Origin: Candidatus Woesebacteria bacterium RIFCSPLOWO2_01_FULL_39_10
GTDB lineage: Bacteria; Patescibacteriota; Microgenomatia; UBA8517
Assembly (NCBI GenBank): GCA_001793015.1
Contig: MGHC01000011.1
Coordinates: 18,604-54,108, forward strand
Reading direction: 5' to 3'
Length of the DNA: 35,505 bases
The position numbers and the translations under genes are program-made. How positions within the stretch are numbered: the stretch's first letter is position 1; each line of letters starts with the position of its first letter. Under the pieces are notes generated by a model. It was not told where the DNA came from and searched no databases. It worked only from the letters and a program-made list of their open reading frames with translations. This document shows, piece by piece, positions 231 through 21,947 of this stretch.

Positions 231-258
231 TCTAGCTAGCAATTAGCTAGATTTTTTT
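231..258 (+). terminator. terminator-like hairpin plus T7 in the leader of the giant GT gene
   Basis: TCTAGCTAG-CAA-TTAGCTAGA (9 bp with one G:T) followed by TTTTTTT. Confidence 0.45.
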
Positions 259-267
259 GTATTTGTT

Positions 268-3200
268 ATGAGTGACTTAAATATTATTATTCCTGTCAAA
301 AATGAAGCTGGAAATATAAAAGAGCTGGCTGATCGGATTCACGCCAGTCTTTATTCAGCAGGCATAAAGTATCGAATGATTTTTGTGGACGATCATTCGG
401 AAGATACAACCGTTGAAGAGATAAAAATGGTTTCTGGAAAGTATCCTGTAATACTTCACGTTAAGCAAGGAAAACCTGGTAAAGCATATAGCATTTTGGA
501 AGGGTCCAAATTTGCCACAACTGAAAAGCTGGCAATGATCGATGCAGATCTTCAGTATCCTCCCGAGGTCATTCCAGATATGTACAAACTACTGGACGCT
601 CACGGAGTTGTTGTATCAAACCGCAAAGGCCATAAAACCTCGTTAACAAGAAAAATAGGATCAAAAATGAACAGCCTGATCTTTGAGAAGTTTTTACATG
701 GCTTGAAGGTGGATACCCAGTCGGGCCTGAAACTATTTAAAAAAGAAATAATCGACCATTTGACAGAAGAAGATGTAACGGGATGGACGGTTGATATGCC
801 TCTTCTTAGAACTTCACTTGAGCTTGGCTACTCGATTGGGTGCGTTGATATAGAATTTACGGAAAGAAAAAACGGAAAATCAAAAGTGAATTTCCTAAAA
901 ACCGCACTTGAGATCGGGAGTCACTCTCTGAGACTTAAATTTAAGAAAAGAAAAGTTTATCCGATTAAATCTAAAACAATTGATTCTCCAATCGGTGCGG
1001 GATTGGCCCATAAAGGTAAGAGATTTATCACACACACCCACTTACCACACGAAATCTCAGCGTTAAACACTCTTCATTTGTGGCAAAAAATTGCACTTTT
1101 CTCGTCAATCACAATCCTAGTAGTTGGTTTATTAGTGACAACCAAGTTAACCGCCATCATTGTCATCGCCTTTTTATCATTTATTTATTTTCTTGATCTT
1201 TTGTTTTCTTTACGGGTTTTACTTAAATCTTTACATAATCCTCCTGAAATCAAGATTGATGACGTGGAGATAGCTTCACTTAATGATCAAGACCTGCCTT
1301 TGTATACAATTCTTTGCCCTTTGTACAAAGAGGCCAAAATTTTACCTGAATTTATTGAAAATATAGGAAAAATTGACTGGCCGAAGGAAAAGCTGGAAGT
1401 AATTCTTTTACTTGAAGAAGACGATGAAGAGACAATAAAGGCCTCCCAAAATATATTTATTCCCAGCTACATAAGAACGCTTATTGTTCCAAATTCGCAG
1501 CCAAAAACCAAACCAAAAGCCTGTAATTACGGATTGGCATATTCCAAAGGAGAGTATTTAGTAATTTATGATGCTGAAGATAGGCCGGATCCTCTTCAAC
1601 TGAAAAAAGCATACCTTGCTTTCAAAAAATTGGGTGAAGATGTTGTCTGTTTACAATCGAAACTAAATTACTACAATACAGGCCACAACATTTTAACGAG
1701 ACTTTTTACAAGCGAATACCTCCTGTGGTTTGATCTTATTTTGCCAGGATTACAAGTGGCAGGGACAGTTATTCCTCTAGGAGGTACTAGCAACCATTTC
1801 AAAACCAAGAAACTAAAAAATCTTCACGGATGGGATCCTTTTAACGTAACTGAGGATTGCGACCTGGGTGCAAGGCTTTTTAAAAAAGGTTACAAAACTG
1901 CACTTTTAGATTCAACGACTTATGAGGAGGCAAATTCGAGAATAATTTCCTGGATAAAACAGAGATCACGTTGGATAAAAGGCTATATCCAAACCTACCT
2001 GGTTCATATGCGTGATCCTATAAAGTTCCATAGAGAATTTGGACTTCAAGCTCTCATTTTTCAACTTGTTGTTGGTGCCAGAATGACGTTTATTCTTATA
2101 AACCCAATTCTTTGGCTGGCTACAATTTCTTACTTTGCACTGTACCAATTTGTCGGACCAACAATTGAGTCTCTTTACCCAACCCCGGTTTTCTATATAG
2201 CTGTCACATCTTTAGTTTTTGGTAACTTTATCTATTTTTACAACTATATGATTGGCTGTGCCAAAAAAGGACAGTGGAGTCTTATTAAGTGGGTATTTTT
2301 AATTCCACTCTATTGGCTAATGACTAGTATTGCGGCAATTGTAGCTTTTTATCAACTAATTGTCGCGCCTCATTTTTGGGAGAAAACTGAACACGGTTTG
2401 CATCTTAGTGTCAAAGCAAAACAAAAAGAAGCAATACGATTATTGCCAAGACTAGCTTTAAGCGACGCTGTTTTTGGTGGAAGTGTACTTATATTTGCCT
2501 CAATTGCCGCCAACTTTTCCAATTTTTTGTATAACGCTTATTTGGGAAGATCGGTTGACCTTTCGCAATTTGGGACAGTTGCCTTAATAGGAAACATATT
2601 TACTTTGGTTGGCGTAATAACAACTGCATTAGGAAGGACTGTTTCTTACAAAACCGCATACCTATTGGGTAAGTTTGGGTATACAGTTTCTGATTTTTGG
2701 GCTAAAACCCAAAAAGTATCCTGGTTTGGAGCATTTTTAACAACCCTTATTTGGCTTTTGGCTATACCGTTCTTGGCAAACTTTTTTAATGAAGTTGACC
2801 CTGTTCCCTTCTTACTTTTTACACCGTTTTGGATATTTGCCTTAGTTGGTTCAGTAAACCACGGATTTATTAGTGGGAATTTAAAATTCGGCACACTCGC
2901 AACAATTGTTTTTCTTGAGTCTTCAACCAAACTTCTTTTTGCGTACCTTTTTATCGAATTTGGATTAAAAGATCTGGTTTATGCGGCAATTCCGGCTTCA
3001 CTTGTTATTCCCTTTATTTTTGCATGGCTTATATCGGTAGGAATTAAAAAACAAAAACTCGTATACGAAGCTAAGATCGAACTTAATTTCCCAACCGGAT
3101 TTTTTACAACCTCGATTCTAACGAGCTTGGCAGGCGTTGCCATATTAACCTTTGACGTAATTTTGGCAAAACATTATCTTCCAGCAACAGAAGCCGGGCA

Positions 3201-4902
3201 GTACGCCCTTTTGTCGTTAAGCGGAAAGATAGTTTACTTTTTGGGATCCTTATTTACGCAATTTATTACACCTCTCGTAAGTAAGGGTGAGGGTGCCGGT
3301 AAGAGAACAGAGGAAGTTTTTTATAAGTTATTAAGCGGTTCGATTGCAACCTCGTTCGTCGGATTTATAGCAATCGGAATATTCGGCCACATAACAATTC
3401 CAATGTTATTTGGTGAAAAGGCTGTGAGCTTAATTCCACACCTTCCCTTATACGCACTGGCGATGTTTCAGTTTAGTGTTGCCTCGGGAATAGTAATTTA
3501 CCACCAAGTCAAAAAACATTATCTATTCCCAATAATTTCATTTTCTGTGGCAGCCCTTGAGGTTCTCGGAATAGCCTTAAGCCATAATAGTATTTCGGAT
3601 ATATCTCTTGTTGTTACTACTCTCGGATCAGTCCAGCTTTTCTTAGTTACTTTCTTTCATGTCCTGTACGACCCTTTACTAGTTTTATCTAGAAACGTAA
3701 GCGATTTTTTGGGTCTTTTTACTTCAATTAATGGAAACGGAAAACCTTCTCAAAATCTACGGATTTTGGTTTTAAATTGGAGGGATACAAAACATGTTTA
3801 TGGTGGTGGAGCAGAGGTTTATATAGAGGAAATTGCTAAAAGATGGGTTAAGGAAGGGCATAAGGTAACTATCTTTTGCGGAAATGACGGAAAATCGGAA
3901 AGAAATGAGGTTGTTTCCGGAGTTCAAATAGTGCGCCGCGGCGGATTTTATACAGTTTATATCTGGGCGTTTTTATATTATGTACTTAAATTCTCTGGCA
4001 AATTTGATATCGTCGTTGATTGCGAAAACGGAATTCCATTTTTTACACCCCTTTATGTAAGAGTTCCAAAGGTTCTTCTAATACATCACGTTCATCAGGA
4101 TGTATTTCGAAAACATCTTAGTTTTCCGCTGTCATACATTGCCATGGCGCTGGAATCAAAACTAATGCCGTATTTATATAAAAATTCTCAGATTGTAACT
4201 ATTTCCGAATCTTCCAGGCGCGATATTGTAAGACAGGGTTGGGCAATACGAGATAATATTCAAATTGTTAATCCGGGAATTAATGCTATAGCTTTCAAAA
4301 AAGCTAAAAGATCGGCTAATCCCACTTTTACCTATGTCGGTCGTTTAAAGCATTACAAAAATATTGACGTAGCAATTAAAGCCCAGGCCATAATTTCGAA
4401 AAAATATAACGAAGCCCGCCTATTTATTGCCGGTAAAGGCGAAGAAGAAAATTACCTAAAGGGGCTCGCAAAAGAACTTGGAACGAATGGATCGGTTGTA
4501 TTTAAAGGATTTATTAGTGAAAAAAGTAAAGCAAAACTGCTTTCCTCCTCATGGGCTGCTATTCAGCCCTCGTCTTTTGAAGGCTGGGGTATAACCGTTA
4601 TTGAAGCGAACGCTTGTGGGATTCCTGTGATTGCCTCAAAAACCAATGGCCTTTCTGATTCTGTCGTCGATGGAGTAACAGGACTTTTAGTACCACAAGG
4701 AAATCCTGAAGTTCTCGCAAAAGCTATGGAAGGAATCATTTTAGATAAAAAATTTAGACTCGAACTTGGCCGAAAAGCATATGAGTGGTCCAAAAATTTC
4801 AGCTGGGACAAGAGTGCAAACCAATTTTTGAGAATTATTTTTAAGACAATAGAAAAAGAACGAGAAGTTTTATTTGTGAGGAAACTAGAATTGGCAAAAT
4901 AA
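268..4902 (+). CDS. Four-module fusion: DPM-like GT2 + processive membrane GT2 + Wzx/MOP-like flippase + GT4
   Basis: N-terminus IIPVKNE, VDDHSED, IDADLQYPP (GT-A, DPM1-like). Middle KPKACNYG, YDAED, GGTSNHF, NVTED, QRSRW, WEKT with TM helices. About aa 735-1145 multi-TM with LGRSVDLSQFG, DVILAKHYL..EAGQY (Wzx-like). C-terminus GGGAE, YVGRLKHYKN, EGWGITVIEA (GT4). Confidence 0.9.
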   Translation: MSDLNIIIPVKNEAGNIKELADRIHASLYSAGIKYRMIFVDDHSEDTTVEEIKMVSGKYPVILHVKQGKPGKAYSILEGSKFATTEKLAMIDADLQYPPEVIPDMYKLLDAHGVVVSNRKGHKTSLTRKIGSKMNSLIFEKFLHGLKVDTQSGLKLFKKEIIDHLTEEDVTGWTVDMPLLRTSLELGYSIGCVDIEFTERKNGKSKVNFLKTALEIGSHSLRLKFKKRKVYPIKSKTIDSPIGAGLAHKGKRFITHTHLPHEISALNTLHLWQKIALFSSITILVVGLLVTTKLTAIIVIAFLSFIYFLDLLFSLRVLLKSLHNPPEIKIDDVEIASLNDQDLPLYTILCPLYKEAKILPEFIENIGKIDWPKEKLEVILLLEEDDEETIKASQNIFIPSYIRTLIVPNSQPKTKPKACNYGLAYSKGEYLVIYDAEDRPDPLQLKKAYLAFKKLGEDVVCLQSKLNYYNTGHNILTRLFTSEYLLWFDLILPGLQVAGTVIPLGGTSNHFKTKKLKNLHGWDPFNVTEDCDLGARLFKKGYKTALLDSTTYEEANSRIISWIKQRSRWIKGYIQTYLVHMRDPIKFHREFGLQALIFQLVVGARMTFILINPILWLATISYFALYQFVGPTIESLYPTPVFYIAVTSLVFGNFIYFYNYMIGCAKKGQWSLIKWVFLIPLYWLMTSIAAIVAFYQLIVAPHFWEKTEHGLHLSVKAKQKEAIRLLPRLALSDAVFGGSVLIFASIAANFSNFLYNAYLGRSVDLSQFGTVALIGNIFTLVGVITTALGRTVSYKTAYLLGKFGYTVSDFWAKTQKVSWFGAFLTTLIWLLAIPFLANFFNEVDPVPFLLFTPFWIFALVGSVNHGFISGNLKFGTLATIVFLESSTKLLFAYLFIEFGLKDLVYAAIPASLVIPFIFAWLISVGIKKQKLVYEAKIELNFPTGFFTTSILTSLAGVAILTFDVILAKHYLPATEAGQYALLSLSGKIVYFLGSLFTQFITPLVSKGEGAGKRTEEVFYKLLSGSIATSFVGFIAIGIFGHITIPMLFGEKAVSLIPHLPLYALAMFQFSVASGIVIYHQVKKHYLFPIISFSVAALEVLGIALSHNSISDISLVVTTLGSVQLFLVTFFHVLYDPLLVLSRNVSDFLGLFTSINGNGKPSQNLRILVLNWRDTKHVYGGGAEVYIEEIAKRWVKEGHKVTIFCGNDGKSERNEVVSGVQIVRRGGFYTVYIWAFLYYVLKFSGKFDIVVDCENGIPFFTPLYVRVPKVLLIHHVHQDVFRKHLSFPLSYIAMALESKLMPYLYKNSQIVTISESSRRDIVRQGWAIRDNIQIVNPGINAIAFKKAKRSANPTFTYVGRLKHYKNIDVAIKAQAIISKKYNEARLFIAGKGEEENYLKGLAKELGTNGSVVFKGFISEKSKAKLLSSSWAAIQPSSFEGWGITVIEANACGIPVIASKTNGLSDSVVDGVTGLLVPQGNPEVLAKAMEGIILDKKFRLELGRKAYEWSKNFSWDKSANQFLRIIFKTIEKEREVLFVRKLELAK

Positions 4903-4956: not shown

Positions 4957-5874
4957 ATGAATAACAAACCAACAATAACTATCGGCATTCCAGCATATAA
5001 CGAAGAGCAAAACATCGCTAATATGCTTGATAGTGTCTTAGCTCAAAAAGGCAGTTTCAAGTTAGAGAAAATTATAGTTGCTTGCGACGGATGTCTGGAC
5101 AAAACCCCTGATATAGTCAGAAAGTTTCAAATGCAAAACAAAAATATAATCTTACTCGAAGGTAAGCGAAGAGAAGGTAAATTATATAGATTGAATCAAA
5201 TATACAAAAGAAGCAAAAGCGACATTTTACTAACATTCGATGGAGACATTCTTCTGTCGAATGAAACGGTAATTGAAAAAATGATTAGTAAATTAACTGA
5301 AGACAAGAATGTCATTTTGGTTGTAGCACACCAAGTACCTGTCAAACCAACTAATTTTAAGGAAACAATTTTCTATACTGCTTACAAAATTTGGGAGGAA
5401 ACCAGAGTTCATGTTAATGAAGGAGACCATATCCATAATTTGCAAGGCGCTGCTGTTGCAATGAGAGCCAAGTTAGCAAAAAAATTAAGGTATCCAAAAA
5501 CCCTCACAACCGATCAGGGCTATCTTTATCTGTTTGCTAAAAAGTACGGGAAATTTAAATATGCATACCAAGCAATAATTTTTTATAGAGTGGTAAAAAC
5601 ACTAAAAGATTTCAGGCGACTTTCCCAAAGGACCTTGCATCAAGATCAGCAAACAGCAGCAAAACATTTTGGAAAAGAAGCCTTGAATGAGTACAAGATT
5701 CCCGTTCACAATAAACTAAAAGCGTTAATAATAAACTTTGTAAAAAGTCCACTATTTACCTCTCTTGCAATTTTAGTAAACCTTTATGTTCGGTTATTTC
5801 CATTAAATAACAATGGAAAGCCAGAGAATAAGTGGAAAATAGTTACAACAACAAAGGAGGTGATACACGTATGA
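4957..5874 (+). CDS. Glycosyltransferase family 2
   Basis: TIGIPAYNEE, ACDGCLDKT, TFDGD (DxD). Confidence 0.9.
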   Translation: MNNKPTITIGIPAYNEEQNIANMLDSVLAQKGSFKLEKIIVACDGCLDKTPDIVRKFQMQNKNIILLEGKRREGKLYRLNQIYKRSKSDILLTFDGDILLSNETVIEKMISKLTEDKNVILVVAHQVPVKPTNFKETIFYTAYKIWEETRVHVNEGDHIHNLQGAAVAMRAKLAKKLRYPKTLTTDQGYLYLFAKKYGKFKYAYQAIIFYRVVKTLKDFRRLSQRTLHQDQQTAAKHFGKEALNEYKIPVHNKLKALIINFVKSPLFTSLAILVNLYVRLFPLNNNGKPENKWKIVTTTKEVIHV

Positions 5875-6764
5875 AGAAAAAACTTACATTAACAGTTGGA
5901 ATTCCAACGTATTATGGAGGGCCGGCATTAGTTAATGCGGCAAAAAGCGTGTTGGATTCAAAAAGTGTTGATAAATTTCGACTAATTGTGAATATAGATG
6001 GGAATCCTTTAGAGCCAGAAATAGAAAAACAGCTTTTAGACTTGGGAGTAGATGTTGTATTCAGCAAAGAAAGAGGAGGACAAGTTGCCAGAATTAAACA
6101 AATGATAGGGATGACAGATACAGACATCTTAGTTCTTACCCAAGATGATATTCAATTAGCGCCTGATACTTTAGCAAACATACTAAAGACCTTTGGAAAT
6201 TATCCCAAATTGACAATGATTGGGGCAAGGATGAGGTCAAAGAAAACTAACAAAATAATGGAAAAGATAGTAGATGTTGCGGTTGAGGGAAATAACGAAC
6301 TGGGACGAAGATGGAAAAACGGCAACAACTATTTAATGGCTTCAGGTCGATGTATGGCATTTAGAGCAGACTTTATTAAAAAGTTTGATATTCCTGAAGG
6401 AATCATTAACTCAGATTCTTACCTTTACTTTGAAAATAAAAGAAAAGGAGGAGAATTCCTGGCACTTAGCGAGGCTGTGGTATTTAACAAAACACCTGAA
6501 ACTCTAAAAGAACATCTTAAACAAAGCCGTAAATTCAGTGTTTCGAAAGGTGAAAACGAAAAATACGCAGGTGAAAATTTATCAGGTGAATATTCGATTC
6601 CCTTGAAACCAAAACTCGAAGCATTTGCGGCGATACTTTTAAGAAAGCATATTTGGGCAATTTTGTATTTAGGAATAAATCTCTATACAAAAATTGTAGG
6701 CAGAAATATGTACAAAGACGCCGTTAGATTTTGGGAAACAGATAAAACGACTAAAAAAGTATGA
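5871..6764 (+). CDS. Glycosyltransferase family 2 (start moved to ATG 5871)
   Basis: TVGIPTY, TQDDI, ASGRCMAFR; SD AAGGAGGT at 5854-5861 and ATGA overlap with the previous stop. Confidence 0.85.
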   Translation: MKKKLTLTVGIPTYYGGPALVNAAKSVLDSKSVDKFRLIVNIDGNPLEPEIEKQLLDLGVDVVFSKERGGQVARIKQMIGMTDTDILVLTQDDIQLAPDTLANILKTFGNYPKLTMIGARMRSKKTNKIMEKIVDVAVEGNNELGRRWKNGNNYLMASGRCMAFRADFIKKFDIPEGIINSDSYLYFENKRKGGEFLALSEAVVFNKTPETLKEHLKQSRKFSVSKGENEKYAGENLSGEYSIPLKPKLEAFAAILLRKHIWAILYLGINLYTKIVGRNMYKDAVRFWETDKTTKKV

Positions 6765-7849
6765 AATCTATAGTAAGAAAATCAAAGTCAACAAATAGAA
6801 TAAACAGTGGCTCTCTGTCTGTGTGGAATGTTATTTTTGGTAATTTTCTAAGTTTAATAAGTTTTCTAGATGATGTTGAACATAAACATGATTTATACAA
6901 GATCAGCGGTTATAAGTTATTTGAAAAATTCAAAACAAACACGAGGAATTCTAATTGGGTAGCGGCAGTTTACAAAAATGCATCGAATAAAAAGGTATTT
7001 GTTAAAAGGTATTTTTACAAATATAAGGATATTAATTATCATCATATATTGAATATGGCGTTTTTTTTAACACAGACTAGATATTTACAAAATCAAAAAC
7101 ATGGCTCGTATACAGTCAAATTTCCAAAGGTAGTTGACTTCAACGATAATAAAAATAATGTGACTTTAGTCACAGAATTTTGTGAAGGTAAACCAATTTC
7201 TGAACATAAGGACGATACAATATTGGAAGTGCTAGGTGAGTGCTTAATAGAATTAAAAAGTCATACGTCTAGGTTAAATAAAGAAATTGTTAATCAGCTT
7301 CCAAAAAGAACCCCTTTATTGATTTTTCTAAACTTTAATTATTTATTATTGAAAAGTTTCGTAAAAGATTTAAAAAGCCCAACATTGTATATAAAAATTC
7401 TAGCTACTTTTTATAAGCATGCTATAACATTGGATTATTTTAGGCCAGAATATTCAATATCCCACAGAGATTTAACCCCGGATAATATTTTGATCGACAG
7501 AAATACTATTACAATTTTGGACACAGAATATTTGGTGATTGGGGACTCGGTGACTGATTTAGCTATCACTCCACGAATGTTTCTCAATAAGGTTGAACCA
7601 GAAAAATTGATTAGTCTTCTGAATAAGAATTTAAATAATACTTCGGAGAGAAACAGATTCATGGCTTTAAGTTTGTACTATACAGTGTTAACACTTTCCG
7701 TATCGGAAAAGAAAAGCCGTCACTATAATAATTCAAAATTGTATTTAAAGGAGTTTTTTGAAAACATAGCACCGAAAGTTTTTGAAATTATTGATGAACA
7801 TAACAGGGAAAAAGAATACTTTTGTGAAGGAGAGATTTTTAATAATTAA
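6761..7849 (+). CDS. Protein-kinase-like phosphotransferase (APH/Kdo-kinase-like)
   Basis: VFVK, catalytic-loop SHRDLTPDNILI, metal-binding ILDTE, GDSVTDLA; ATGA-coupled to the upstream gene. Confidence 0.75.
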   Translation: MKSIVRKSKSTNRINSGSLSVWNVIFGNFLSLISFLDDVEHKHDLYKISGYKLFEKFKTNTRNSNWVAAVYKNASNKKVFVKRYFYKYKDINYHHILNMAFFLTQTRYLQNQKHGSYTVKFPKVVDFNDNKNNVTLVTEFCEGKPISEHKDDTILEVLGECLIELKSHTSRLNKEIVNQLPKRTPLLIFLNFNYLLLKSFVKDLKSPTLYIKILATFYKHAITLDYFRPEYSISHRDLTPDNILIDRNTITILDTEYLVIGDSVTDLAITPRMFLNKVEPEKLISLLNKNLNNTSERNRFMALSLYYTVLTLSVSEKKSRHYNNSKLYLKEFFENIAPKVFEIIDEHNREKEYFCEGEIFNN

Positions 7850-8782
7850 ATGAAAAAACCAACAGTTACAATCGGAATCCCTGCCTATAACGAGGAGGCA
7901 AATATCGAATATTTGCTTAAAACACTTTTGGCAGATTCGTCCAGGATTGTAAAACTCGCCGAAATAGTCATTGTATCGGACGGAAGTACAGATGCTACAG
8001 TCACTTGTGCGAGATCGGTTAATGATCGACGAATAAGAATCATTGATCGAAAACAAAGACGAGGGCTCGTCGCCACCGAGAATGAGCTTTTGCGCAATGT
8101 CCATGGAGATATCTTGGTCATGTTAGATGCTGATGTAGTTCCAGTAGAATCCGATTTTTTGGATAGGATAACAGAGCCTATCAGGAAAAATTCTTCTGTT
8201 GGTTGTGTGGGGGCAGATATAATACCACTTCCTCCCAGGAATCTTTTTGAGCGTGTGATTGCAAACAGTCACTACCTGAAGCGACATCTCTATAGAAGAA
8301 TCAGTCATGGCAACAATGTCTATTTGTGTCATGGGAGGGCGAGGGCCTTTTCGCGCTCGTTTTATAAAAAGTTGCATTGGCCGGATGATTGTCCGGAAGA
8401 TGCTTTTTCTTATCTTACTTGTATTGCGAGAGGATTCAAATTTAAATATACAGATGCAGCTAGTATATTTTTTCGGTCCCCGGTCATTTTATTTGAGCAT
8501 AGGCTTCAAAGCTCTCGATTTGTTGCAGGAATAGACCGGCTTAAGGAATTGTTTAGTCCAGAATTTGTTAAGCGCGAGTATAGCATACCCTGGAAGTTGT
8601 TCGTTGGTACATTACTGAAATACTTATTTCGCAACCCTTTCTCTACACCTGCATATCTTGTAATCACGTCTTATATTCGATTAACTCACAGAAATACAGA
8701 TATTTATAAGTCTAGATTTGAGGTGGCATCAACTTCAAAACAAATAGTTGCATTTAAAGGTCAAAAACTATCAAGAGTATGA
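7850..8782 (+). CDS. Glycosyltransferase family 2
   Basis: TIGIPAYNEE, VSDGSTD, MLDAD, CHGRARAF. Confidence 0.9.
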   Translation: MKKPTVTIGIPAYNEEANIEYLLKTLLADSSRIVKLAEIVIVSDGSTDATVTCARSVNDRRIRIIDRKQRRGLVATENELLRNVHGDILVMLDADVVPVESDFLDRITEPIRKNSSVGCVGADIIPLPPRNLFERVIANSHYLKRHLYRRISHGNNVYLCHGRARAFSRSFYKKLHWPDDCPEDAFSYLTCIARGFKFKYTDAASIFFRSPVILFEHRLQSSRFVAGIDRLKELFSPEFVKREYSIPWKLFVGTLLKYLFRNPFSTPAYLVITSYIRLTHRNTDIYKSRFEVASTSKQIVAFKGQKLSRV

Positions 8783-9999
8783 ATATTTTAATTCCAAATG
8801 CCACAGGGCCTACAAATCTCGGGGATCATACCATGCTCGAAGTATTGCTGGATCTTATTGAGTCGACGAAAGGAAAGAAAAAATTAATGATACATACGAA
8901 AAATCCTGAGCTATATGAAAGAAAATATGCGAGGATTATCGCACCGAGTATTTATCACTATGTTGCCCTGAGTAAAATAAATTTAATTGTAAGAACTCTT
9001 CGAATGATAAAAATACTTATGTATTCACAAATAGTAAAAAATAGATCTAGACCATTCATCTCGAAGCGAAGTGACACAGCGGTAAAAATTATGAATGATT
9101 ATATACAAGCTGATGTAATTATTTTTGCGGGCGGCGGATATCTCAGGTCACAAAAAGGCATGAGACAGTCATTGAACTTACTGCTGCAGTTAGTTCCGTT
9201 CATCGTCGCAAAAAGCGTTAAACGTAAGATAATAGTTGCTCCAAATAGTTTTGGACCTTTTGCCTATCACTGGCAGCTAAAACTTACAGCCAAAGTTCTA
9301 AATGATTGCGACGTGGTCGCCGTTCGGGAAGAAAAATCTTATACATTAATGAAATCATACGGAGTAAAAAATCTTCATCTTTTGAACGATTTAGCGTTAC
9401 TTGTTAAAAAAACCAAACCCACCAATAAGAAGAATAAAATTATTGGATTTACTATAAGAAACTGGCTGCGCAGTCGTGTTGAGCAAGACAAGCTCGAGTT
9501 TTCATACGCACATGCTCTTACGCGATTATCCAAGCGTACTGGGGTTACGATTCAGCCTATTATTCAAGTCGCCTCTCCGGATTTTCCCTTCGAAGATGAT
9601 AAGGAAGCAGTCCGGCGAGTATATAACCGACTTCGCGATGGACATGTCCCTGTGTCAGTCCCAATTAAACTTAAATCCGTGAAGCATGCCGCCAATGTAT
9701 ACGGATGTTTAGATTTACTTCTTGGTATGAGAATGCATTCAAATATTTTAGCAGCAACTCAAGGAGTACCGTTTGTTGCAGTGAGTTATGAGCACAAGAC
9801 CCACGGCATTACAAAGCAGATTGGCATGGAAAAGTATTGTATCTCATGTGAGAAGATAGACGGCGATGTTCTGTATAAGCTTCTCATGGTAGTCTATCGA
9901 AACCGTAAGCGACTCAGGGATCAATTAATAACAAACGTTGCGTCTATTAGAAGCATCGGTATCAACGAGTGGCAATCATTGCTTTCTAAAACAAACTAA
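8779..9999 (+). CDS. Polysaccharide pyruvyltransferase (WcaK/CsaB family)
   Basis: NLGD, GGGYL, SFGPF, VREEKS, DLALL, GMRMHSNI, SYEHK. Confidence 0.9.
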   Translation: MNILIPNATGPTNLGDHTMLEVLLDLIESTKGKKKLMIHTKNPELYERKYARIIAPSIYHYVALSKINLIVRTLRMIKILMYSQIVKNRSRPFISKRSDTAVKIMNDYIQADVIIFAGGGYLRSQKGMRQSLNLLLQLVPFIVAKSVKRKIIVAPNSFGPFAYHWQLKLTAKVLNDCDVVAVREEKSYTLMKSYGVKNLHLLNDLALLVKKTKPTNKKNKIIGFTIRNWLRSRVEQDKLEFSYAHALTRLSKRTGVTIQPIIQVASPDFPFEDDKEAVRRVYNRLRDGHVPVSVPIKLKSVKHAANVYGCLDLLLGMRMHSNILAATQGVPFVAVSYEHKTHGITKQIGMEKYCISCEKIDGDVLYKLLMVVYRNRKRLRDQLITNVASIRSIGINEWQSLLSKTN

Positions 10000-10004
10000 A
10001 AAAT

Positions 10005-11183
10005 ATGAAAATAGCCAATATTATTTGTTCTACAAAAAACGATAAAGTTGTTTTATCAGGACAGCTAATCTTAGATAGCGGTAAGAAACACGATATCTAT
10101 TTTGAGGTCGATGCGGAGTTTGAAAGGTATCTTTCTAAGGACGCGACTCCATTTATACCTCTCGCACTCCCTATTTCAATGAGAAAAAGAGAAGACCTAG
10201 AGGTGACTGATGCTTCTTCGAAAGTTATATCTAAGACTTCAAAAATCATGAGCATATTAAAGGGTTGGAATACGGGATTTAATAGAATCACAATCAAGTC
10301 GAAGAGTGCAAAGAAAAGCATAAGGCGAGTAAGTAACGTCGGATGTTTCTTTTCAGGTGGCGTTGACTCTTTTTATACGTATTTAAAGAACAAAAAAAAG
10401 ATAGACTTTTTAATATTTGTACATGGTTTTGATATCAGCACACAAAATACAGATTTCTATAAAAATGTTCAGAAAAATATAGTTCAAATATCAGAAAAAG
10501 AAAAAATCAAAATAATTAGGGTTAAAACCAATCTGCGGGAAACTCTAGAGCAATATTTCGACTGGGATATGGCTCATGAATTCGGACTAGCTAGTGTCTC
10601 CCTCTTTTTAAGCCGAGGATTGGGGGAAGTGTATATGTCTTGTGGCCAAACAAGTATTGGTGCGGATCATCATTACATGACTCCGGAGTTAGATACTCTT
10701 TGGTCAACGGAAACGATGAAAGTGAATCATTACGGGTGTACTGCTGACAAAATTAAAAAACTTAAATTTTTGTCTAATTTCGATATCGTAATGGAGACGT
10801 TACGGGTATGTTGGGTCAATACGTATGGACAATATAATTGTAGTGAGTGTGAAAAGTGTTTTAGAAATATGCTCGCTCTTTATGCAACGAATTCCTTGGA
10901 AAAATGCAAAACCTTTGAAAAACCGATTAACACAGAAAAGCTCAGGAAAATTAAGGTAAATCCATACGTTTTACGATACTTTGTTTCTGTATTAAACGTT
11001 TTAAAAATGAAAAAAGATAGATCGCAGATTCGCTACGCGCTGGAAGAATTTGTAACAAATAACAGGCATCCGTCATCGTTTCAAAAGTTTGTGAGAAAAT
11101 TAAGATCTTTTGTTTCAAAACTTGATAAAACCTATAACCATCATAGATTATATTGGTTTTTAGCTAGTAGGGGTTATGCTTAA
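10005..11183 (+). CDS. QueC-like PP-loop (adenine nucleotide alpha hydrolase) protein with Cys cluster
   Basis: CFFSGGVDS PP-loop; C-terminal RVCW..YNCSECEKC. Confidence 0.7.
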   Translation: MKIANIICSTKNDKVVLSGQLILDSGKKHDIYFEVDAEFERYLSKDATPFIPLALPISMRKREDLEVTDASSKVISKTSKIMSILKGWNTGFNRITIKSKSAKKSIRRVSNVGCFFSGGVDSFYTYLKNKKKIDFLIFVHGFDISTQNTDFYKNVQKNIVQISEKEKIKIIRVKTNLRETLEQYFDWDMAHEFGLASVSLFLSRGLGEVYMSCGQTSIGADHHYMTPELDTLWSTETMKVNHYGCTADKIKKLKFLSNFDIVMETLRVCWVNTYGQYNCSECEKCFRNMLALYATNSLEKCKTFEKPINTEKLRKIKVNPYVLRYFVSVLNVLKMKKDRSQIRYALEEFVTNNRHPSSFQKFVRKLRSFVSKLDKTYNHHRLYWFLASRGYA

Positions 11184-11286
11184 GAAAATATTATTTCCTT
11201 TTTAAAGAATATTTAGGACTATTGGATACGCGCTATTTTAATAGAAAGATTTTTTACGCTTTAAGTAAGTGGGGTTATATTTAAAT

Positions 11287-12891
11287 ATGAAAATAATTAA
11301 GAAAATATTTAAACCAGTATTTTTTATTCTTTTTTTGCTTTTTACTGTTTCAATATTGGCACTGAGTATACGTGGAGTTTATGGAAATCCAACTACAGAA
11401 ACACTTAATTCTTTATATTTCAAAGACGATGGGCCGTTAGAGTTATCTCCGGAAAAAGGGAGATTTGCGTTGATTTACTCATTGATCGAAGATAAATCAT
11501 TCCATTTTTCATTACCTGTGGCAAAAACTGTTACACCGGATTTGGGATATCAGGATGGTAAATATGTTTCTTTGTTCGACCCAGGAGTATCAATAATTGC
11601 TGCTCCGGGATATATTATTGGTAAGTATTTTAATGTATCGCAGTTTGGTAGTTTTGCAGTGATTGCTCTTTTTGCTTTAGCTAACGCCCTTCTTATTATG
11701 GGAGTTGCCAAAAAACTAGGTGCAAACGGGATTGCTTCTTCGTTGGCCGGATTGGTTTTTCTTTTTGGGACACCCGCCTTTGCATATGCCGTTACTTTAT
11801 ATCAACATCATGTAACAGTTTTCCTCATGCTTTTGAGCATATTCTTACTTGTGAAATACAAAGGAATTTTGCCATTATTTTTCGTTTGGATTTTGGTCGT
11901 GGGTTCTCTGATAGCAGATTATCCGAATTTTTTCTTATTTCTGCCGATAGGTATATATGCGCTGGGCAGGGTGTTTCCGATTGAAGATATAGATAATCGC
12001 GTGAAATTAAATATTAAAATATTAGGTCTTATAAGTTTCATTACAATCCTGATTCCTGTATCACTTTTTTTGTGGGTACATAAAGTATCTTATGGAGACC
12101 CACTGCAATTGGCGGGTACTGTACGGTCAGTAAAGGATTTTGATGTAGACGGTAGTCCTTTATTTAGAGAAGATTTATTAAGAAGGGAAGGTAAAGTGCT
12201 GGAAGCCGAAACCTTAAATAAGGGAAAAACCCCCATTGGTTTTTTCAAAACAAGAAACTTTATAAAAGGTTTGTATCTGCATCTAGTAAGTGATGAAAGA
12301 GGAATTTTAGTATTTACTCCCGTGCTGTTATTATCCTTAATCGGAATTTATTATTCTTATGTAAAAATACCCAAGGTAACAGCGCTTCTCTTGGCTTTGA
12401 TTGGGATGAATATCGCAGTATATTCAATGTGGGGAGACCCTTGGGGAGGTTGGGCTTTTGGGTCACGCTATCTAATACCCTCATACGCACTTTTATCGAT
12501 ATTTGTAGCGTTTACTTTGACAAAATTCAGAGGAAGAGGATTGGTTTTAATTCTATTTCTCGTATTAGCAGCTTACTCTATTTCGGTAAGTACCTTGGGG
12601 GCTCTTACTTCAAATAAAATTCCTCCGAAAGTCGAAGCTGTTGCACTGGAACCAATTTCTGGAAAAAAGGAACATTATACATATCTTCGAAATTGGGAGT
12701 TTTTAAGTAATAACGGTTCAAAGTCATTTGTTTTTCAAACATTTGGGAAGGATTATGTAACCGCACGACAATACTTTTTTATGGTTGTCGGGTCAATAAT
12801 TATAGTTATGACCGGACAAATTATTTATTTGTATTTGACTGCTAGAAAGGACCCTCCTTCGCGTAAAGCTACGGAGGGCGAGAGGATTTGA
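11287..12891 (+). CDS. Multi-pass membrane protein, GT-C glycosyltransferase-like
   Basis: Many TM segments, N-terminal loop PDLGYQDGKYVSLFDPG, WGGWAFGSRYLIP; ATG 11287 preferred over GTG 11269. Confidence 0.65.
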   Translation: MKIIKKIFKPVFFILFLLFTVSILALSIRGVYGNPTTETLNSLYFKDDGPLELSPEKGRFALIYSLIEDKSFHFSLPVAKTVTPDLGYQDGKYVSLFDPGVSIIAAPGYIIGKYFNVSQFGSFAVIALFALANALLIMGVAKKLGANGIASSLAGLVFLFGTPAFAYAVTLYQHHVTVFLMLLSIFLLVKYKGILPLFFVWILVVGSLIADYPNFFLFLPIGIYALGRVFPIEDIDNRVKLNIKILGLISFITILIPVSLFLWVHKVSYGDPLQLAGTVRSVKDFDVDGSPLFREDLLRREGKVLEAETLNKGKTPIGFFKTRNFIKGLYLHLVSDERGILVFTPVLLLSLIGIYYSYVKIPKVTALLLALIGMNIAVYSMWGDPWGGWAFGSRYLIPSYALLSIFVAFTLTKFRGRGLVLILFLVLAAYSISVSTLGALTSNKIPPKVEAVALEPISGKKEHYTYLRNWEFLSNNGSKSFVFQTFGKDYVTARQYFFMVVGSIIIVMTGQIIYLYLTARKDPPSRKATEGERI

Positions 12892-12892: not shown

Positions 12893-14548
12893 ATGAAAAT
12901 GCCAAATTTCACCCTAAGTTTATCAATTCAAAAACATACACTTAGTAACATCCAAAACTGGATTGAAAGAAATGCATTGAGCCTTATTGTTTTTGTTTTA
13001 ACAATTCTTTCAATTTTATTGTTTCTCTTTTATTACCTCAACGGATTGGGGTTGGCGTATAACGATGCCAGGTCTCACTTAGACATAGGGCGCCGAGTTG
13101 TTGAAGGATTGAAACCCGGAATCGCTCAATTAGGATCTGTCTGGCTACCTCTTCCCCATGTATTAATGATTCCAACCATTTGGATTGATATTTTCTGGCA
13201 TTCTGGATTATCAGGAGCATTGGTTTCCATGGTTTCATTCGTTTCAATGGGAGTGATTATTTACCTTTTCCTAAAAAGTTTGGGAGCGGGGCTTTTAGGA
13301 AGATTTTTTGGAGTTATTGTGTTCGTCGCCAACTTAAACATTTTGTATCTTCAATCAACGGCTATGACGGAACTTCTTCTAATGGCAACGATGACGATAG
13401 GATGCTATTACCTACTTCTTTGGGCGAAAAAGGAGGAAGTACTTTATTTGATTAAATCAGCATTTTTTATAATGCTCTCGACACTAACTCGTTACGACGG
13501 ATGGTTTTTATTTTTATTTGCGGCATTATTAGTTGCCGTAAAAGTTCTCATTAAACACGGATTTAAAATAAGTCTTGGGCAATTGAAAGAAGTTTACCAA
13601 GAAACCGAAGGGAAGCTTATTCTTTTTTCAACTCTGGCGGGTTTCGGTATAGCTTTGTGGTTTTTGTGGAACTTAGTGATTTTTAAAGATCCTTTGTATT
13701 TTGCATTCGGCCCTTTCTCGGCTCGCACCCAGCAAGCCCAGCTTGAAGCCGCAGGAGAATTGCACACGAAATACAACATCGTTTTATCAACAGTTCTTTA
13801 TCTTTATGCACTAATTTACAATTCATATGCCTTCACGGTCATCTTAGGGCTTTTTGGATTGATTGCCTTGTGGTTTTCAAAAATTAAAACAGAGATAAAA
13901 GTTGCGGCAATGGCACTTCTTGCCCCTTTGTTTTTTAATGTCCTGGCCTTATTTTTAGGTCACTCTGTTTTGTTTATTCAAGGAATCTCAGGAAATACTT
14001 GGTTTAATGTCCGATATGGAATTATGCTTCTTCCGGCAATTGCTGTATTTACAGGATTTCTGGTTGATAAATTAAAAAACTTGCGGTGGACTTTTATTGG
14101 ACTGTTTGCTTTTACAACGTTTTTTGCATTCTCAAGCGGAGATTCTGTTGCAATCGATGATGCAAGAGTAGGATCAAGCCAGAAAAACGTTACTGAAGTC
14201 TCAGGCTGGCTTTCGAGAAATGCAAAGGATAGGACCGGTTTTATATTAATTTCAGCAGCATCCCATGATGCAATAATTTTTTCTTCAGGACTTCCTATGA
14301 AAAAATTTATTCACGAAGGAACCGGAGCGTATTGGGAGTCGGCCACAACAGCACCTGACAGATGGGCCCGCTGGATTGTAATGCGGACACATGACGACAA
14401 TGATTTAGTTTGGAAGGACGTAAGTCGCTCAGAAGGATTCAAAAAATATATTCTTGTTGACAGTTATCCTTTCGCAGATATTTACGAATTGGATGAAAAA
14501 TACCTTGGGGATTTAAATACAGGACCTACATTTGGTAAACAAAAATGA
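12893..14548 (+). CDS. GT-C glycosyltransferase (PMT/ArnT-like)
   Basis: Acidic first loop YNDARSHL, WLPLPH, AMTE, TRYDGW, NVRYG; multi-TM with a soluble C-terminal domain. Confidence 0.75.
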   Translation: MKMPNFTLSLSIQKHTLSNIQNWIERNALSLIVFVLTILSILLFLFYYLNGLGLAYNDARSHLDIGRRVVEGLKPGIAQLGSVWLPLPHVLMIPTIWIDIFWHSGLSGALVSMVSFVSMGVIIYLFLKSLGAGLLGRFFGVIVFVANLNILYLQSTAMTELLLMATMTIGCYYLLLWAKKEEVLYLIKSAFFIMLSTLTRYDGWFLFLFAALLVAVKVLIKHGFKISLGQLKEVYQETEGKLILFSTLAGFGIALWFLWNLVIFKDPLYFAFGPFSARTQQAQLEAAGELHTKYNIVLSTVLYLYALIYNSYAFTVILGLFGLIALWFSKIKTEIKVAAMALLAPLFFNVLALFLGHSVLFIQGISGNTWFNVRYGIMLLPAIAVFTGFLVDKLKNLRWTFIGLFAFTTFFAFSSGDSVAIDDARVGSSQKNVTEVSGWLSRNAKDRTGFILISAASHDAIIFSSGLPMKKFIHEGTGAYWESATTAPDRWARWIVMRTHDDNDLVWKDVSRSEGFKKYILVDSYPFADIYELDEKYLGDLNTGPTFGKQK

Positions 14549-15804
14549 TTAAGACTAAATTCGCTTTAATAACTTTAATAGTAACGCTGGCAGTCATAAT
14601 GACAGTATTTTTACGTTCCTCGAATTTTTCCCGGGTTGCGTCAGTAACAGATAGCCAAAAAGTGTGGTGGGAAGTTCAGTCTATCGATACTGTTAAGTAC
14701 TCGCGTGATATTGCAAGAGAAAAAGCAAATGATGTTTCTTTTGATTTGGTAATTGATAAACAGGTTTCATTAATTGCAGGGACAGGTGCTACCCATATAG
14801 CAATTGGTACTCCATACGATGCGGAATTTTTACCTTTTATGAAGCGGTGGGTTTCAACTGCAAGAAAATATGGTTTAAAAGTTTGGTTCAGGGGGAATTT
14901 AGCAGGATGGGAAAGTTGGTTTGGTTACCCGAGAATATCAAAAGAAGAACATATCGAAAAAACTAAAGAGTTTATCTTGTCTAATGGGGAATTGTTTGAA
15001 GACGGAGACGTTTTTAGTTCCTGTCCTGAATGTGAGAATGGTGCACTGGGCGATCCGAGGCTAACAGGCGACGTTCGCGGTTATAGAAAATTTTTAATCG
15101 ATGAATATAAGGTGACAAACGATTCTTTCAGAAAAGTCGGGAAAAACGTGCGGTCTAACTTTATTCCTATGAATGGTGATGTCGCTAATCTTGTTATGGA
15201 CAAGGAAACTACAAAAGCTCTTGGCGGAATTGTTGTTATTGATCATTATGTTGCAACACCTGAAGGGCTTGCGGCTGATGTAAAAAAAATTGCCCAAAGA
15301 AGCGGTGGAAGGGTCGTCCTTGGCGAATTCGGCGCCCCAATTCCTGATATCCATGGAAATTTTTCTGAGCTCGAACAATATATTTGGGTTCAAGATTCTT
15401 TAGAAAGGTTGTCAGAGGTTAATGATTTAATAGGAGTAAATTATTGGGTCTCTTTTGGAGGAAGCACTAAATTATGGAATGATGATGGGTCCGAAAGAAT
15501 AGTTGTTGGAGTTCTTGAAACTTTTTTCAAGCCTAAAATGTTGACTGGAAAAATTGTAAATCAGATCCAAAAGCCTGTTGAAGGAGCAAAGGTTAACGTT
15601 GGAATAAAAACTACAATAACAAATGAAAACGGAGAGTTTACAATTCCTTATCTTTCCAACGAGGCGATGCTCAAAGTTGAAAAGGATGGTTATTTTCAAA
15701 GCCAGATAGCAGTTGGTGCGGTTAAAGGGCAAATAATCCTTATTCGAAATCCTGAGAATTTTATATTCAAAATTGAGAAATTTTTCTTTAACCTGTTTAA
15801 GTGA
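14545..15804 (+). CDS. Membrane-anchored or secreted glycoside hydrolase-like protein (clan GH-A-like) with C-terminal carboxypeptidase-regulatory-like domain
   Basis: N-terminal hydrophobic helix; ARKYGLKVW, CPECENG, VIDHY, VLGEFG, GVNYW; tail GKIV..PVEGAKV..TNENGEF..KDGY. Confidence 0.65.
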   Translation: MIKTKFALITLIVTLAVIMTVFLRSSNFSRVASVTDSQKVWWEVQSIDTVKYSRDIAREKANDVSFDLVIDKQVSLIAGTGATHIAIGTPYDAEFLPFMKRWVSTARKYGLKVWFRGNLAGWESWFGYPRISKEEHIEKTKEFILSNGELFEDGDVFSSCPECENGALGDPRLTGDVRGYRKFLIDEYKVTNDSFRKVGKNVRSNFIPMNGDVANLVMDKETTKALGGIVVIDHYVATPEGLAADVKKIAQRSGGRVVLGEFGAPIPDIHGNFSELEQYIWVQDSLERLSEVNDLIGVNYWVSFGGSTKLWNDDGSERIVVGVLETFFKPKMLTGKIVNQIQKPVEGAKVNVGIKTTITNENGEFTIPYLSNEAMLKVEKDGYFQSQIAVGAVKGQIILIRNPENFIFKIEKFFFNLFK

Positions 15805-15929
15805 AGCCTCCCCAAGCACGGAGCTTGGGGCATCTTTTTTTAAGATAGTCGCTTTCAGCGACAGGCTCCTATCCTAGGTTCATTCACCCCCGAGTGAGGA
15901 GACTCGGGGAATTCTGAAACTAGTCTTAA
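15801..15929. mobile_element. Non-coding multi-hairpin element, possibly a non-autonomous IS200/IS605-like (MITE/PATE) unit
   Basis: GC-rich hairpins at 15810-15830, 15848-15862 and 15888-15909 in AT-rich surroundings; TTAA on both sides. Confidence 0.5.
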
Positions 15930-19982: not shown

Positions 19983-19993
19983 GTACTATATAC

Positions 19994-20020
19994 ACCATGC
20001 GGGGACTGTCCTTGTATGGT
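19994..20020. repeat. REP-like imperfect palindrome between rmlA and rmlB
   Basis: ACCATGCGGGGAC-T-GTCCTTGTATGGT, 13-nt arms with G:T pairs. Confidence 0.55.
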
Positions 20021-20031
20021 AGTCGTACAAT

Positions 20032-21590: not shown

Positions 21591-21642
21591 TAACAACAAA
21601 CTTTATTTACTTCTTTTCTTAATTAACTTATAATACAAATTA

Positions 21643-21888: not shown

Positions 21889-21947
21889 AGTACACTCCAA
21901 AAAGTATTAGTTTACCTTTTAGATAGAAATTGCGATAATAGTTAATT

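Follow-up and report, generated by a model that had tools for sequence, protein, structure and literature searches.

In textbooks, synthase-dependent and Wzx-dependent export figure as alternatives to each other. Pairs of a polyprenyl-phosphate sugar synthase and a GT-C glycosyltransferase that uses its product are also familiar, as RgtE with RgtA-D and Ppm1 with PMT/mannosyltransferases, and ArnT/PMT_2/RgtA-type enzymes use polyprenyl-monophosphate donors. For assembly on undecaprenyl monophosphate, the precedents are GacI/J together with the Wzx-type GacK and the GT-C GacL, and WpsA/B together with further glycosyltransferases (GTs), the Wzx-type WpsG and the GT-C WpsJ (as outlined in PMC10821137). 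For polymer synthases, the minimal cellulose-synthase core has six helices: two before the GT domain, two after it, then an interface helix and gating loop, and two more (as summarised in PMC8892547). Here we analysed a stretch of 35,505 nucleotides (nt), from here on the window, from Candidatus Woesebacteria bacterium RIFCSPLOWO2_01_FULL_39_10, an ultra-small groundwater bacterium of the Patescibacteria. One open reading frame (ORF) in it joins parts of all these systems. It lies at 268..4902 on the + strand, starts with ATG, encodes 1544 amino acids (aa) and is the first gene of a 10-gene unit.

We found that this ORF is one real inner-membrane protein with four intact modules: a first GT of family GT2 (GT2a), a second one (GT2b), a Wzx-type flippase and a GT4. 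None of the modules is of a new kind, and there are precedents for the logic of the pathway. For the four-module chain we found no description in the literature: a search that did not extend to supplementary files returned no paper on the fusion or on a pair of GT2 synthase and GT-C.

Among the closest known systems are the Gac system of Streptococcus pyogenes and the lactococcal Wps system (WpsA/B, WpsC-F, WpsG, WpsH/WpsJ). As in their description in PMC10821137, a DPMS-like GT2, a Wzx-type flippase and outward GT-Cs are encoded together, with extra cytoplasmic GTs and without a phosphoglycosyl transferase in the cluster. However, in our case the GT2, the flippase, the GT4 and a BcsA-class synthase form one polypeptide. 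The unit has no ABC-transporter rhamnan line, the synthase standing in its place, and no GacJ/WpsB-like activator was identified in it. Kinship at the sequence level is that of superfamilies only.

A preliminary description of the window had proposed an uninterrupted ORF with three GT domains around a membrane block, and had suggested a domain scan, an architecture search and a look at the module junctions as checks. We confirmed this outline. The frame at 268..4902 is intact and is the sole long one at that place, with an in-frame stop at 244, 24 nt 5' of the ATG. Since about 7% of random codons are stops at 37% G+C, 1544 open codons are not expected by chance. The motifs that had been named were all found where they had been placed: DAD at aa 92-94 (nt 541-549), DAED at 435-438, TED at 528-530, QRSRW at 565-569 (nt 1960-1974) and EGWGITVIE at 1438-1446 (nt 4579-4605). 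All of these catalytic motifs stay unchanged across 44 aligned full-length orthologues. The Pfam scan recognised the three GT catalytic domains, two GT2 and one GT4 (PF00535 at aa 6-160, PF13641/PF13632 at 346-625, PF13439 at 1180-1339 and PF00534 at 1341-1507).

We checked the integrity of the frame in contigs of four other public runs (X3, X4, X5 and X7), which covered 30 of 30 bins. They presented no inserted or deleted letters and a single substitution, C>A at 1521 in X4. Neither a stop nor a frameshift was seen between modules, and every junction was bridged by single records: GT2a/GT2b by X3 record 2, X4 record 9, X5 record 18 and X7 record 25; GT2b/membrane block by X5 record 22 (2052-3917); and membrane block/GT4 by X3 record 6, X4 record 12, X5 record 22 and X7 record 30. 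The stretch was present in 20 runs (16 with at least half of the sampled words), with labels that were all groundwater, soil or sediment metagenomes; no RNA data set was listed among them.

The fusion recurs as a full-length protein. A search of 5.8 billion proteins gave 1330 matches, and the best 120 of them all represented the complete architecture (1513-1620 aa, 98-100% coverage). The first was the window's own protein, and the other 119 presented 48-86% identity. Named sources among the best 120 of 1330 were Woesebacteria, Gottesmanbacteria, Amesbacteria, Roizmanbacteria, Microgenomates and 'Patescibacteria group'; among the matches listed, the only database names were 'glycosyltransferase' or 'hypothetical protein'. 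Dojkabacteria, Daviesbacteria, Moraniibacteriota, a Parcubacteria-group record and Saccharimonadales were further named carriers of the full-length form.

Among 401 sampled genomes of Patescibacteria, the full-length form was listed in 11, including the host genome (1.15 Mb, 38 contigs, 97% complete), that is, in 10 of the 400 others. Within the host's own family, none of the five other sampled genomes had it (about 0.8 Mb each, 99-100% complete), whereas more distant classes do. This patchy distribution arose through loss or transfer. Full-length copies at 46-53% identity were also seen in assemblies titled 'uncultured Gammaproteobacteria', 'Bdellovibrionales', 'Verrucomicrobiia' and 'Sulfotelmatobacter' (loci L057, L059-L061 and others). 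All other named full-length carriers are Patescibacteria lineages, and these titles are probably in error and no sign of transfer.

The first module, GT2a (268..987, + strand; aa 1-240), is a putative lipid-phosphate sugar synthase-like GT-A domain of the polyprenyl-phosphate type (PF00535), with DDH at 41-43 and DADLQ at 92-96. The DPM-like GT2 expected at the N-terminus agrees with its closest solved relatives: the seven PDB sequence matches were all DPMS, ArnC or GtrB, and the best one was Pyrococcus furiosus DPMS (5mlz, 1.5e-18). D92, D94 and Q96 align with the DADLQ of this enzyme; over M90-P103 two residues differ, and the DADLQ-PPEVIP motif is common to both. Neither D92 nor D94 varies in the orthologues, and conservation of Q96 is at least 90%. 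The top NCBIfam matches were ArnC, PgfS, AglJ and Dol-P hexose transferase, all far under their cut-offs (62.4 bits vs. 529 for ArnC and 58.1 vs. 500 for PgfS). Thus, the likeness to ArnC and PgfS is one of superfamily and not of membership in a curated equivalog. As in the ArnC + ArnT and GtrB + GtrC pairs, GT2a is nearest to DPMS/ArnC and both GT-Cs of the unit are nearest to ArnT/PMT_2/RgtA-like clusters. In contrast to pairs of the ArnC + ArnT type, the constant neighbour of the GT-C is GT2b and not the DPMS-like GT2a.

The second module, GT2b, spans aa ~262-714 and is the most conserved of the four: its mean identity to the query is 0.68-0.69, membrane part included, compared with 0.55 for GT4, 0.52 for GT2a and 0.44 for the flippase. 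It starts with a helical hairpin predicted from hydropathy (1084..1221, + strand; aa 273-292 and 296-318), which is retained in stand-alone forms of the module, as these start at query residues 220-262. The catalytic domain follows (1258..2037, + strand; aa 331-590; PF13641/PF13632, BcsA/PgaC class), with DAED, TED and QRSRW. The membrane part (2041..2397, + strand) contains helices 592-630 and 638-660, a hydrophobic interface-type helix at 672-697 and the loop motif PHFWEKTEHG at 701-710.

A processive-type GT2 with these motifs had been proposed before, and the sequence comparison agrees. A profile of 25 GT2b-family sequences matched Escherichia coli BcsA at 4.4e-24, across DxD, TED, QRxRW, the interface helix and TM5, with DAED, TED and QRSRW of GT2b aligned to the same motifs in BcsA and invariant in the orthologues. 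GT2b covered positions 34-392 of the 407 of the PgaC_IcaA model; it stayed under the curated cut-offs, with 67.9-97.1 bits vs. 422.3 for PgaC_IcaA and 51.3 vs. 699.1 for CelA. The score against GT21, a family of lipid glycosyltransferases, was 21.6 bits with a cut-off of 21.7.

GT2b shares DxD, TED and QRxRW with BcsA, PgaC/IcaA, hyaluronan synthase and NfrB. Its catalytic domain is flanked by two helices on either side, the second pair leading to an interface-type helix and on to a conserved loop motif. The loop motif (PHxWxKTxHG) was present in 25 of 25 family members, and it would be the counterpart of the BcsA gating loop (FxVTxK) by position, given that the BcsA alignment stops at TM5. 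Stand-alone members of the family end right after this motif, and in the fusion the next two helices belong to the flippase module. Thus, GT2b lacks the two helices past the gating loop that the minimal cellulose-synthase core has in the summary of PMC8892547. It also differs from BcsA and PgaC in its partner, which is a GT-C and not BcsB or PgaD.

Relatives of GT2b at 46-51% identity carry MshEN in front of it, with two stretches in a Paraconexibacter protein and four to six in three representatives of ~1200-1300 aa. MshEN is a c-di-GMP receptor domain that is found fused to glycosyltransferases (as reported in PMC5013675). NfrB, a characterised exopolysaccharide synthase controlled by c-di-GMP, joins a GT2 to MshEN in the same manner as these relatives (according to PMC8669469). 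These repeats are the best indirect argument for reading GT2b as being of the true exopolysaccharide-synthase type. It looks like a polymer synthase, for which processive, self-translocating action is predicted. The fusion protein itself has neither a PilZ nor a MshEN domain, and this absence fits the lack of any GGDEF gene found in the host genome.

The third module (2458..3687, + strand; aa 731-1140) is the least conserved. The multi-helix, Wzx/MOP-like block previously proposed at about 2470-3700 was recovered here by family-averaged hydropathy, as 12 helices, and by profile-profile comparison; Pfam was blind to it directly. Scanning aa 711-1161 returned neither a Pfam family (E <= 10) nor an NCBIfam family (E <= 0.01), and a PF01943 search of the host genome found four other Wzx genes, the fused module not being among them. 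A profile of the block and its relatives gave one spurious match only (E 0.11) against PDB sequences. Searching with the flippase block alone retrieved stand-alone proteins of 408-435 aa, some with PF01943 or PF13440, and two flippase-GT4 fusions; in an alignment of the query with its 10 matches, five of the 11 sequences carried PF01943.

The comparison that carries the assignment is an hhalign run of 13 fused blocks against eight PF01943-positive proteins, which gave a probability of 100% and an E of 6.8e-44 over 390 columns (template 11-409 of 431). Half of the templates (four of eight) stem from the search with the block as query, and the other four from an independent Pfam search. Loops rich in K/R and net positive were found before helix 1 and between helices 2-3, 6-7, 8-9 and 10-11, which fits an N-in/C-in arrangement. 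Altogether, we predict that the central block is a complete, though divergent, 12-helix Wzx-type module. It is like the Wzx/PST flippases in its full-length profile match, helix number and charge pattern, and unlike them in being too divergent for Pfam/NCBIfam, embedded between two enzymes and lost in close sisters.

The fourth module (3760..4902, + strand; aa 1165-1544) is a GT4 of GT-B fold and retaining class, recognised by PF13439 and PF00534, as expected from the EGWGITVIE motif at the C-terminal end. E1438, G1439 and E1446 of this EX7E motif are invariant in the 44 orthologues. The solved relatives are generic for GT4: GlgA, MshA, PimA and TarM.

The three catalytic domains would all face the cytoplasm, as the preliminary description had anticipated; this agrees with the K/R pattern and with the helices counted in the linkers of natural variants. 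In nine GT2b-GT4 representatives without a blast-detectable flippase, the linker had no helices in four, two in one, four in two, 12 in one and one in one. The single-helix linker was scored at the threshold, and two hydrophobic stretches can be read in its printed sequence. The 12-helix linker (P0155) is probably a flippase too divergent for blast. In GT2b-GT-C fusions, the linker was helix-free in 10 of 10 examined. Since GT4 needs nucleotide sugars and variants with helix-free linkers exist, the GT2b end must be cytoplasmic, and a twelve-helix flippase in between puts GT2b and GT4 on the same side of the membrane. With its end in the cytoplasm, helix 672-697 of GT2b would lie at the interface and not cross the membrane.

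We fetched 13 loci with the fused or split form to count their neighbours, naming the two GT-C types after the 540-aa and 551-aa proteins of the window. A 551-type GT-C was in the same cluster in 12 of the 13, and the contig of the 13th ends first. The 540-type GT-C was in the cluster in 11 of 13 loci, an extracellular protein (419-aa type) in 12 of 13, an fn3 protein and a sortase behind the cluster in six of 13, and PIG-L family deacetylases in four of 13. With GT2a and the Wzx module in the ORF and two GT-C-like genes in the same unit, the window has all three component types together.

Smaller versions of the locus helped to separate these associations. In minimal loci with GT2a-GT2b or with GT2b alone, the 551-type GT-C was the very next gene (11/11), and none of the 11 had a flippase-profile match within the 20 kb fetched. 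The tightest partner of GT2b is the 551-type (ArnT/PMT-class) GT-C. Intermediate forms were also seen. One genome (G181) has a split form, with adjacent genes for GT2a-GT2b (1-720) and flippase-GT4 (736-1529). Another (G057) has GT2a-GT2b and a separate GT4, without a flippase; its cluster encodes, between two GT-C genes, a 251-aa membrane protein like LPG_synthase_TM (L033:8243-8998, + strand; E 1e-7, 32.2 bits vs. a cut-off of 33.4), which may be a replacement flippase.

The same variety was observed in the 150 best representatives of 1.84 billion proteins. Four modules were found in 10 of them, GT2b-flippase-GT4 in five, a flippase without GT4 in three, GT2b-GT4 without a detected flippase in nine (P0155 included) and GT2b fused to a GT-C in 23. 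GT2a stood in front of GT2b-GT-C in three of the 150, and 19 of the 22 fusions in the GT2b-GT-C order had no GT2a.

In a FastTree phylogeny of 144 GT2b segments, 14 of the 17 flippase-bearing forms fell in one 25-row set and 20 of the 22 GT-C-fused forms in another set of 29 rows. The presence of the flippase needs 12 changes on this tree, at least seven of them forced. Close sister pairs with and without the flippase module had a support of 100, although FastTree support is less reliable than that of a careful search.

Further joined frames were seen in the fetched loci. A 1819-aa fusion (L025:12553-18012, - strand) has five modules, with an APH-type kinase domain (aa 1587-1759) behind GT4; its counterpart in the window is the separate gene at 6761-7849. 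A 1215-aa ORF (L021:7605-11252, + strand) combines the 540-type GT-C with a GT2 and a GT4 in a single chain, so the second GT-C also gets fused to cytoplasmic transferases. We had also considered GT4-only frames of 650-710 aa as flippase-GT4 fusions and rejected them, since none of the nine fetched loci had a flippase-profile match; in eight of these the GT4 was either extended at its C-terminus or fused to a GT2 (GT2-GT4), and L045 had no match at all.

The pair of GT2b and GT-C extends beyond Patescibacteria. Records from beyond the phylum that contain GT2b relatives (46-51% identity) have the titles Chloroflexota, Gaiellales, Paraconexibacter, Bacillota and Brocadiia, and the 551-type GT-C was adjacent to GT2b or in one frame with it in four of the five genomes examined. 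Records in which a GT-C neighbours GT2b belong to Actinomycetota, Chloroflexota and Bacillota. In Paraconexibacter sp. AEG42_29, a 753-aa protein of MshEN and GT2b is followed after 8 nt by a 551-type GT-C of 614 aa (L134:7968-12081, - strand).

The operon of the window is delimited by two terminator-like hairpins on the + strand. The first (231..251; nine pairs, then TTTTTTT) lies just 5' of the ORF and probably ends the preceding RNaseH-like gene. The second is strong (15810..15830; eight pairs, six of them G-C, then a T run) and closes the unit. Ten co-directional genes lie between them, and promoter-like sites were at chance level (48 vs. 51.2 expected).

Behind the fusion comes the variable middle of the operon (4957..9999), with three soluble GT2s (4957-5874, 5832-6764 and 7850-8782), an APH-like kinase (6761-7849) and a polysaccharide pyruvyl transferase (8779-9999), all on the + strand. 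In other genomes the matching stretch differs, with GT2s, GT4s, PIG-L/CE4 deacetylases, methyltransferases, aminotransferases and kinases. Next is a soluble 392-aa protein (10005..11183, + strand) with an SGGxDS-type PP-loop motif, a weak AsnB-like match (E 0.013) and no Pfam match; it may be an ATP-dependent amidotransferase that acts on the glycan.

The two GT-C-like proteins follow, both without a Pfam match. The polytopic 540-aa one (11269..12891, + strand) has ~11 helices, a DDGPLE motif in the first loop and a match to the LA_3751/3752 putative glycosyltransferase (9e-10); in the Atlas, the nearest clusters were RgtA-D/PMT_2/PMT-like (score 0.98-0.99, TM 0.71-0.88). The 551-aa one (12893..14548, + strand) has ~8-9 helices and a C-terminal soluble domain, and its nearest Atlas clusters were PMT_2/ArnT-like (score 0.99-1.00, TM 0.81-0.87). 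D58, in the first outer loop and 12 residues past helix 1, and H62 are invariant in 18 sequences, and a fused relative of this type (P0167) passes the PF13231 (PMT_2) cut-off.

The last gene (14545..15804, + strand) encodes a membrane-anchored extracellular protein of 419 aa, with a domain of ~300 aa (invariant E123 and E261) and CarboxypepD_reg. We considered whether it might be a glycoside hydrolase: it had no PDB sequence match, and its profile gave GH2/beta-glucuronidase at a non-significant E of 0.5-0.8. Against solved structures, the family profile matched with the CarboxypepD_reg part and not with the large domain. The long C-terminal extensions of some GT-C partners showed no similarity to this protein.

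Behind the unit lie a secreted fn3 surface protein of 287 aa (17433-18296, + strand), with an S/T-rich linker and a C-terminal LAATG, hydrophobic stretch and KKK, and directly behind it a 180-aa sortase (18310-18852, + strand). An LGLAxTG-type signal was present in six of seven fn3 orthologues and LPATG in one. This sortase substrate could be a glycosylation target. A dTDP-rhamnose set (RmlA-like, RmlB, RmlC and RmlD) at 18903-22865, right behind the sortase, suggests rhamnose in the glycan. Further on, an IS200-like Y1 transposase gene (28583-29260) sits between a peptidase gene and a GT2-GtrA gene. The latter (29274-30500) encodes 408 aa of a polyprenyl-phosphate sugar synthase-like GT2 with a GtrA-type membrane domain, with PgfS, AglJ and PpgS-like matches; it indicates a second lipid-sugar donor line in the genome, 24 kb downstream.

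How these parts work together can be read in several ways. The one that we prefer, tentatively and well short of confidence, is a hybrid route with two chains, in which GT2b makes a backbone and the GT-Cs join flipped lipid-linked donors to it. GT2b would polymerise the backbone glycan from nucleotide sugars and pass the chain across the membrane. GT2a would load a sugar on polyprenyl phosphate, and GT4, the soluble GT2s, the pyruvyl transferase and the kinase would extend or decorate lipid-linked units on the inner face, which the fused Wzx module would flip. Outside, the GT-Cs would use polyprenyl-monophosphate-linked donors on the GT2b product, and the 551-aa GT-C (12893-14548) would act directly at the synthase exit. 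The fusion would then hold donor supply, flipping and polymerisation in one complex. We infer the assignment of glycans to modules. The soluble GTs and modifying enzymes require lipid-linked acceptors at the inner face, which the Wzx module could flip, and GT2b looks like a polymer synthase whose constant partner is a GT-C of the class using polyprenyl-monophosphate donors; a route that joins both would be the simplest account. Its logic is that of the GacI/J/K/L and WpsA/B-WpsG-WpsJ systems on undecaprenyl monophosphate (PMC10821137), and the lack of a phosphoglycosyl transferase among the 31 ORFs of the window and 32 scanned ORFs of related clusters speaks for this route too.

The preliminary description had already proposed that the fusion couples backbone synthesis to flipped side-chain donors for the GT-Cs. 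This is partly supported: the link to the GT-Cs is strong in the fetched loci (551-type in 12/13, 540-type in 11/13). However, the same link exists without GT2a and without a flippase, both in the minimal loci (11/11) and in the fusions to a GT-C (23/150). The proposed coupling as such is plausible. Together with the pyruvyl transferase and the kinase, the soluble GT2s, three in number, imply that the lipid-linked donors would be oligosaccharides and not single-sugar side-chain donors.

Several points weigh against the hybrid route. Fold (MOP), sidedness and a possible synthase channel are predicted from the sequence. GT2b has four helices of its own plus interface helices, compared with six helices in the minimal cellulose-synthase core as given in PMC8892547, and self-export is thus not assured. 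Since the flippase is missing in close sisters and in all 11 minimal loci, the route cannot depend on it everywhere, and GT2a is absent from 19 of the 22 GT2b-GT-C fusions. The QxxRW motif also occurs in lipid glycosyltransferases, with the GT21 model scoring 21.6 bits on GT2b against 21.7. Every module missed the NCBIfam equivalog cut-offs widely. Finally, other places in the genome encode two phosphoglycosyl transferases and have four Wzx genes of the ordinary kind, so parts could be shared with other pathways.

The strongest alternative, possible though rather unlikely, is a single lipid-linked line. GT2a would start the glycan on polyprenyl monophosphate, as WpsA and AglJ do; GT2b, GT4 and the soluble GT2s would extend it, Wzx would flip it and the GT-Cs would polymerise it or transfer it to wall or protein, with GT2b not exporting by itself. 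The gene content is in line with such a line. Pfam found no Bac_transf, Glycos_transf_4 or Wzy_C on the 31 ORFs of the window, and no phosphoglycosyl transferase was found among 32 scanned ORFs of related clusters; the two Bac_transf (phosphoglycosyl transferase) genes of the host genome are on other contigs. With neither a phosphoglycosyl transferase nor Wzy_C found in the window, the locus does not show the gene content of a classical Wzx/Wzy-dependent pathway. Without an acceptor at the inner face there would be no substrate for the soluble GT2s, the pyruvyl transferase, the kinases and the PIG-L deacetylases, and the Wzx module is predicted to be complete. Moreover, the repeat unit of the lactococcal PSP was shown to be assembled on undecaprenyl monophosphate, in a model with Wzx-type export and a GT-C outside (according to PMC10821137).

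What speaks against a single line is GT2b itself. It is the most conserved module, membrane part included (0.68-0.69), it aligns with BcsA through TM5, and it has relatives with the c-di-GMP receptor repeats typical of polymer synthases. Besides, GT2b and GT-C occur as a pair in 11 of 11 loci in which no flippase module was detected in the 20 kb fetched.

This constant pair also inspires a second alternative, which we consider unlikely: a lipid-primed synthase with a GT-C ligase. GT2a would make the primer, GT2b would elongate the chain and thread it outward, and the 551-aa GT-C would move it to the wall or to the fn3 protein, leaving flippase and GT4 as a second, decorating branch. Three of the 150 representatives are triple fusions in precisely the order GT2a-GT2b-GT-C, and in all 11 minimal loci the gene right behind GT2b encodes the GT-C; for the remaining 19 of 22 GT2b-GT-C fusions, the primer enzyme is lacking. 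The fn3 protein, with its S/T-rich linker and own sortase, would make a suitable acceptor in the six of 13 loci where it lies behind the cluster, but the pair is missing from the other seven. Against this reading, ArnT/PMT_2-class enzymes usually transfer single sugars, and two LCP-type ligases are encoded elsewhere in the genome. In its favour, a model has the GT-C WpsJ transfer an entire polymer to rhamnan from undecaprenyl monophosphate (PMC10821137).

A further reading, distinctly unlikely in our view, starts from the end of GT2b at its loop motif, past which the minimal core continues with two more helices. The partner fused to or encoded behind GT2b would supply these two helices, as the first ones of the Wzx module here and of a GT-C in other lineages, and the glycan would exit through a composite synthase-flippase or synthase-GT-C conduit. 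Dependence of a synthase on a membrane partner has a parallel in PgaC, the curated model nearest to GT2b, which needs the small membrane protein PgaD (as stated in PMC8461298).

Very improbable is a glycolipid or lipoglycan route, like those of mycobacterial PIM/LM/LAM or GPI, in which GT4 or GT2b would glycosylate a membrane lipid, sometimes with PIG-L-type de-N-acetylation, Wzx would flip it and the GT-Cs would extend it with polyprenyl-P-sugars supplied by GT2a. PIG-L family deacetylases were found in four of the 13 related clusters, but not in the window. GT4 matched PimA and PimB' (E ~3e-12 to 1e-9) among many GT4s; these matches are generic, and GlgA and MshA score higher. The GT21 score of GT2b was just under its cut-off, whereas its best matches were polymer synthases, and no result indicates a lipid acceptor. 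Finally, a chimeric or mis-assembled frame joining separate genes is refuted for practical purposes: split forms do exist in nature (the adjacent genes 1-720 and 736-1529 of G181) and one X4 contig has a weak joint from 3180 to 3376, which we treated as another organism or noise because its shorter side of 22 letters is below the trust limit of 30, but 119 listed relatives from many sources (the best 120 of 1330 minus the window's own) are all full length, 10 of 400 other sampled genomes have full-length matches, and the contigs of four runs show no indel, with every junction bridged by single records.

At the biological level, parts of both export routes and a lipid-sugar donor synthase are found in one conserved polypeptide, and this fusion heads an operon that, in many Patescibacteria, seems to be the main one for surface glycan. 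These bacteria live attached to other microbes, and to our knowledge next to nothing has been learned about their envelope. More broadly, the analysis points to a two-part module in which a BcsA-class GT2 has an ArnT/PMT-class GT-C as its constant partner, which reaches Actinomycetota, Chloroflexota and Bacillota and for which we know of no described function. Since it is present in a named isolate with a complete genome, Paraconexibacter sp. AEG42_29, it is testable. If the composite conduit were true, it would be a fourth kind of export machine, with the synthase and Wzx routes merged physically and not just genetically. If the GT-C does act on the nascent product of the synthase, it would represent a new accessory class for exopolysaccharide synthases.

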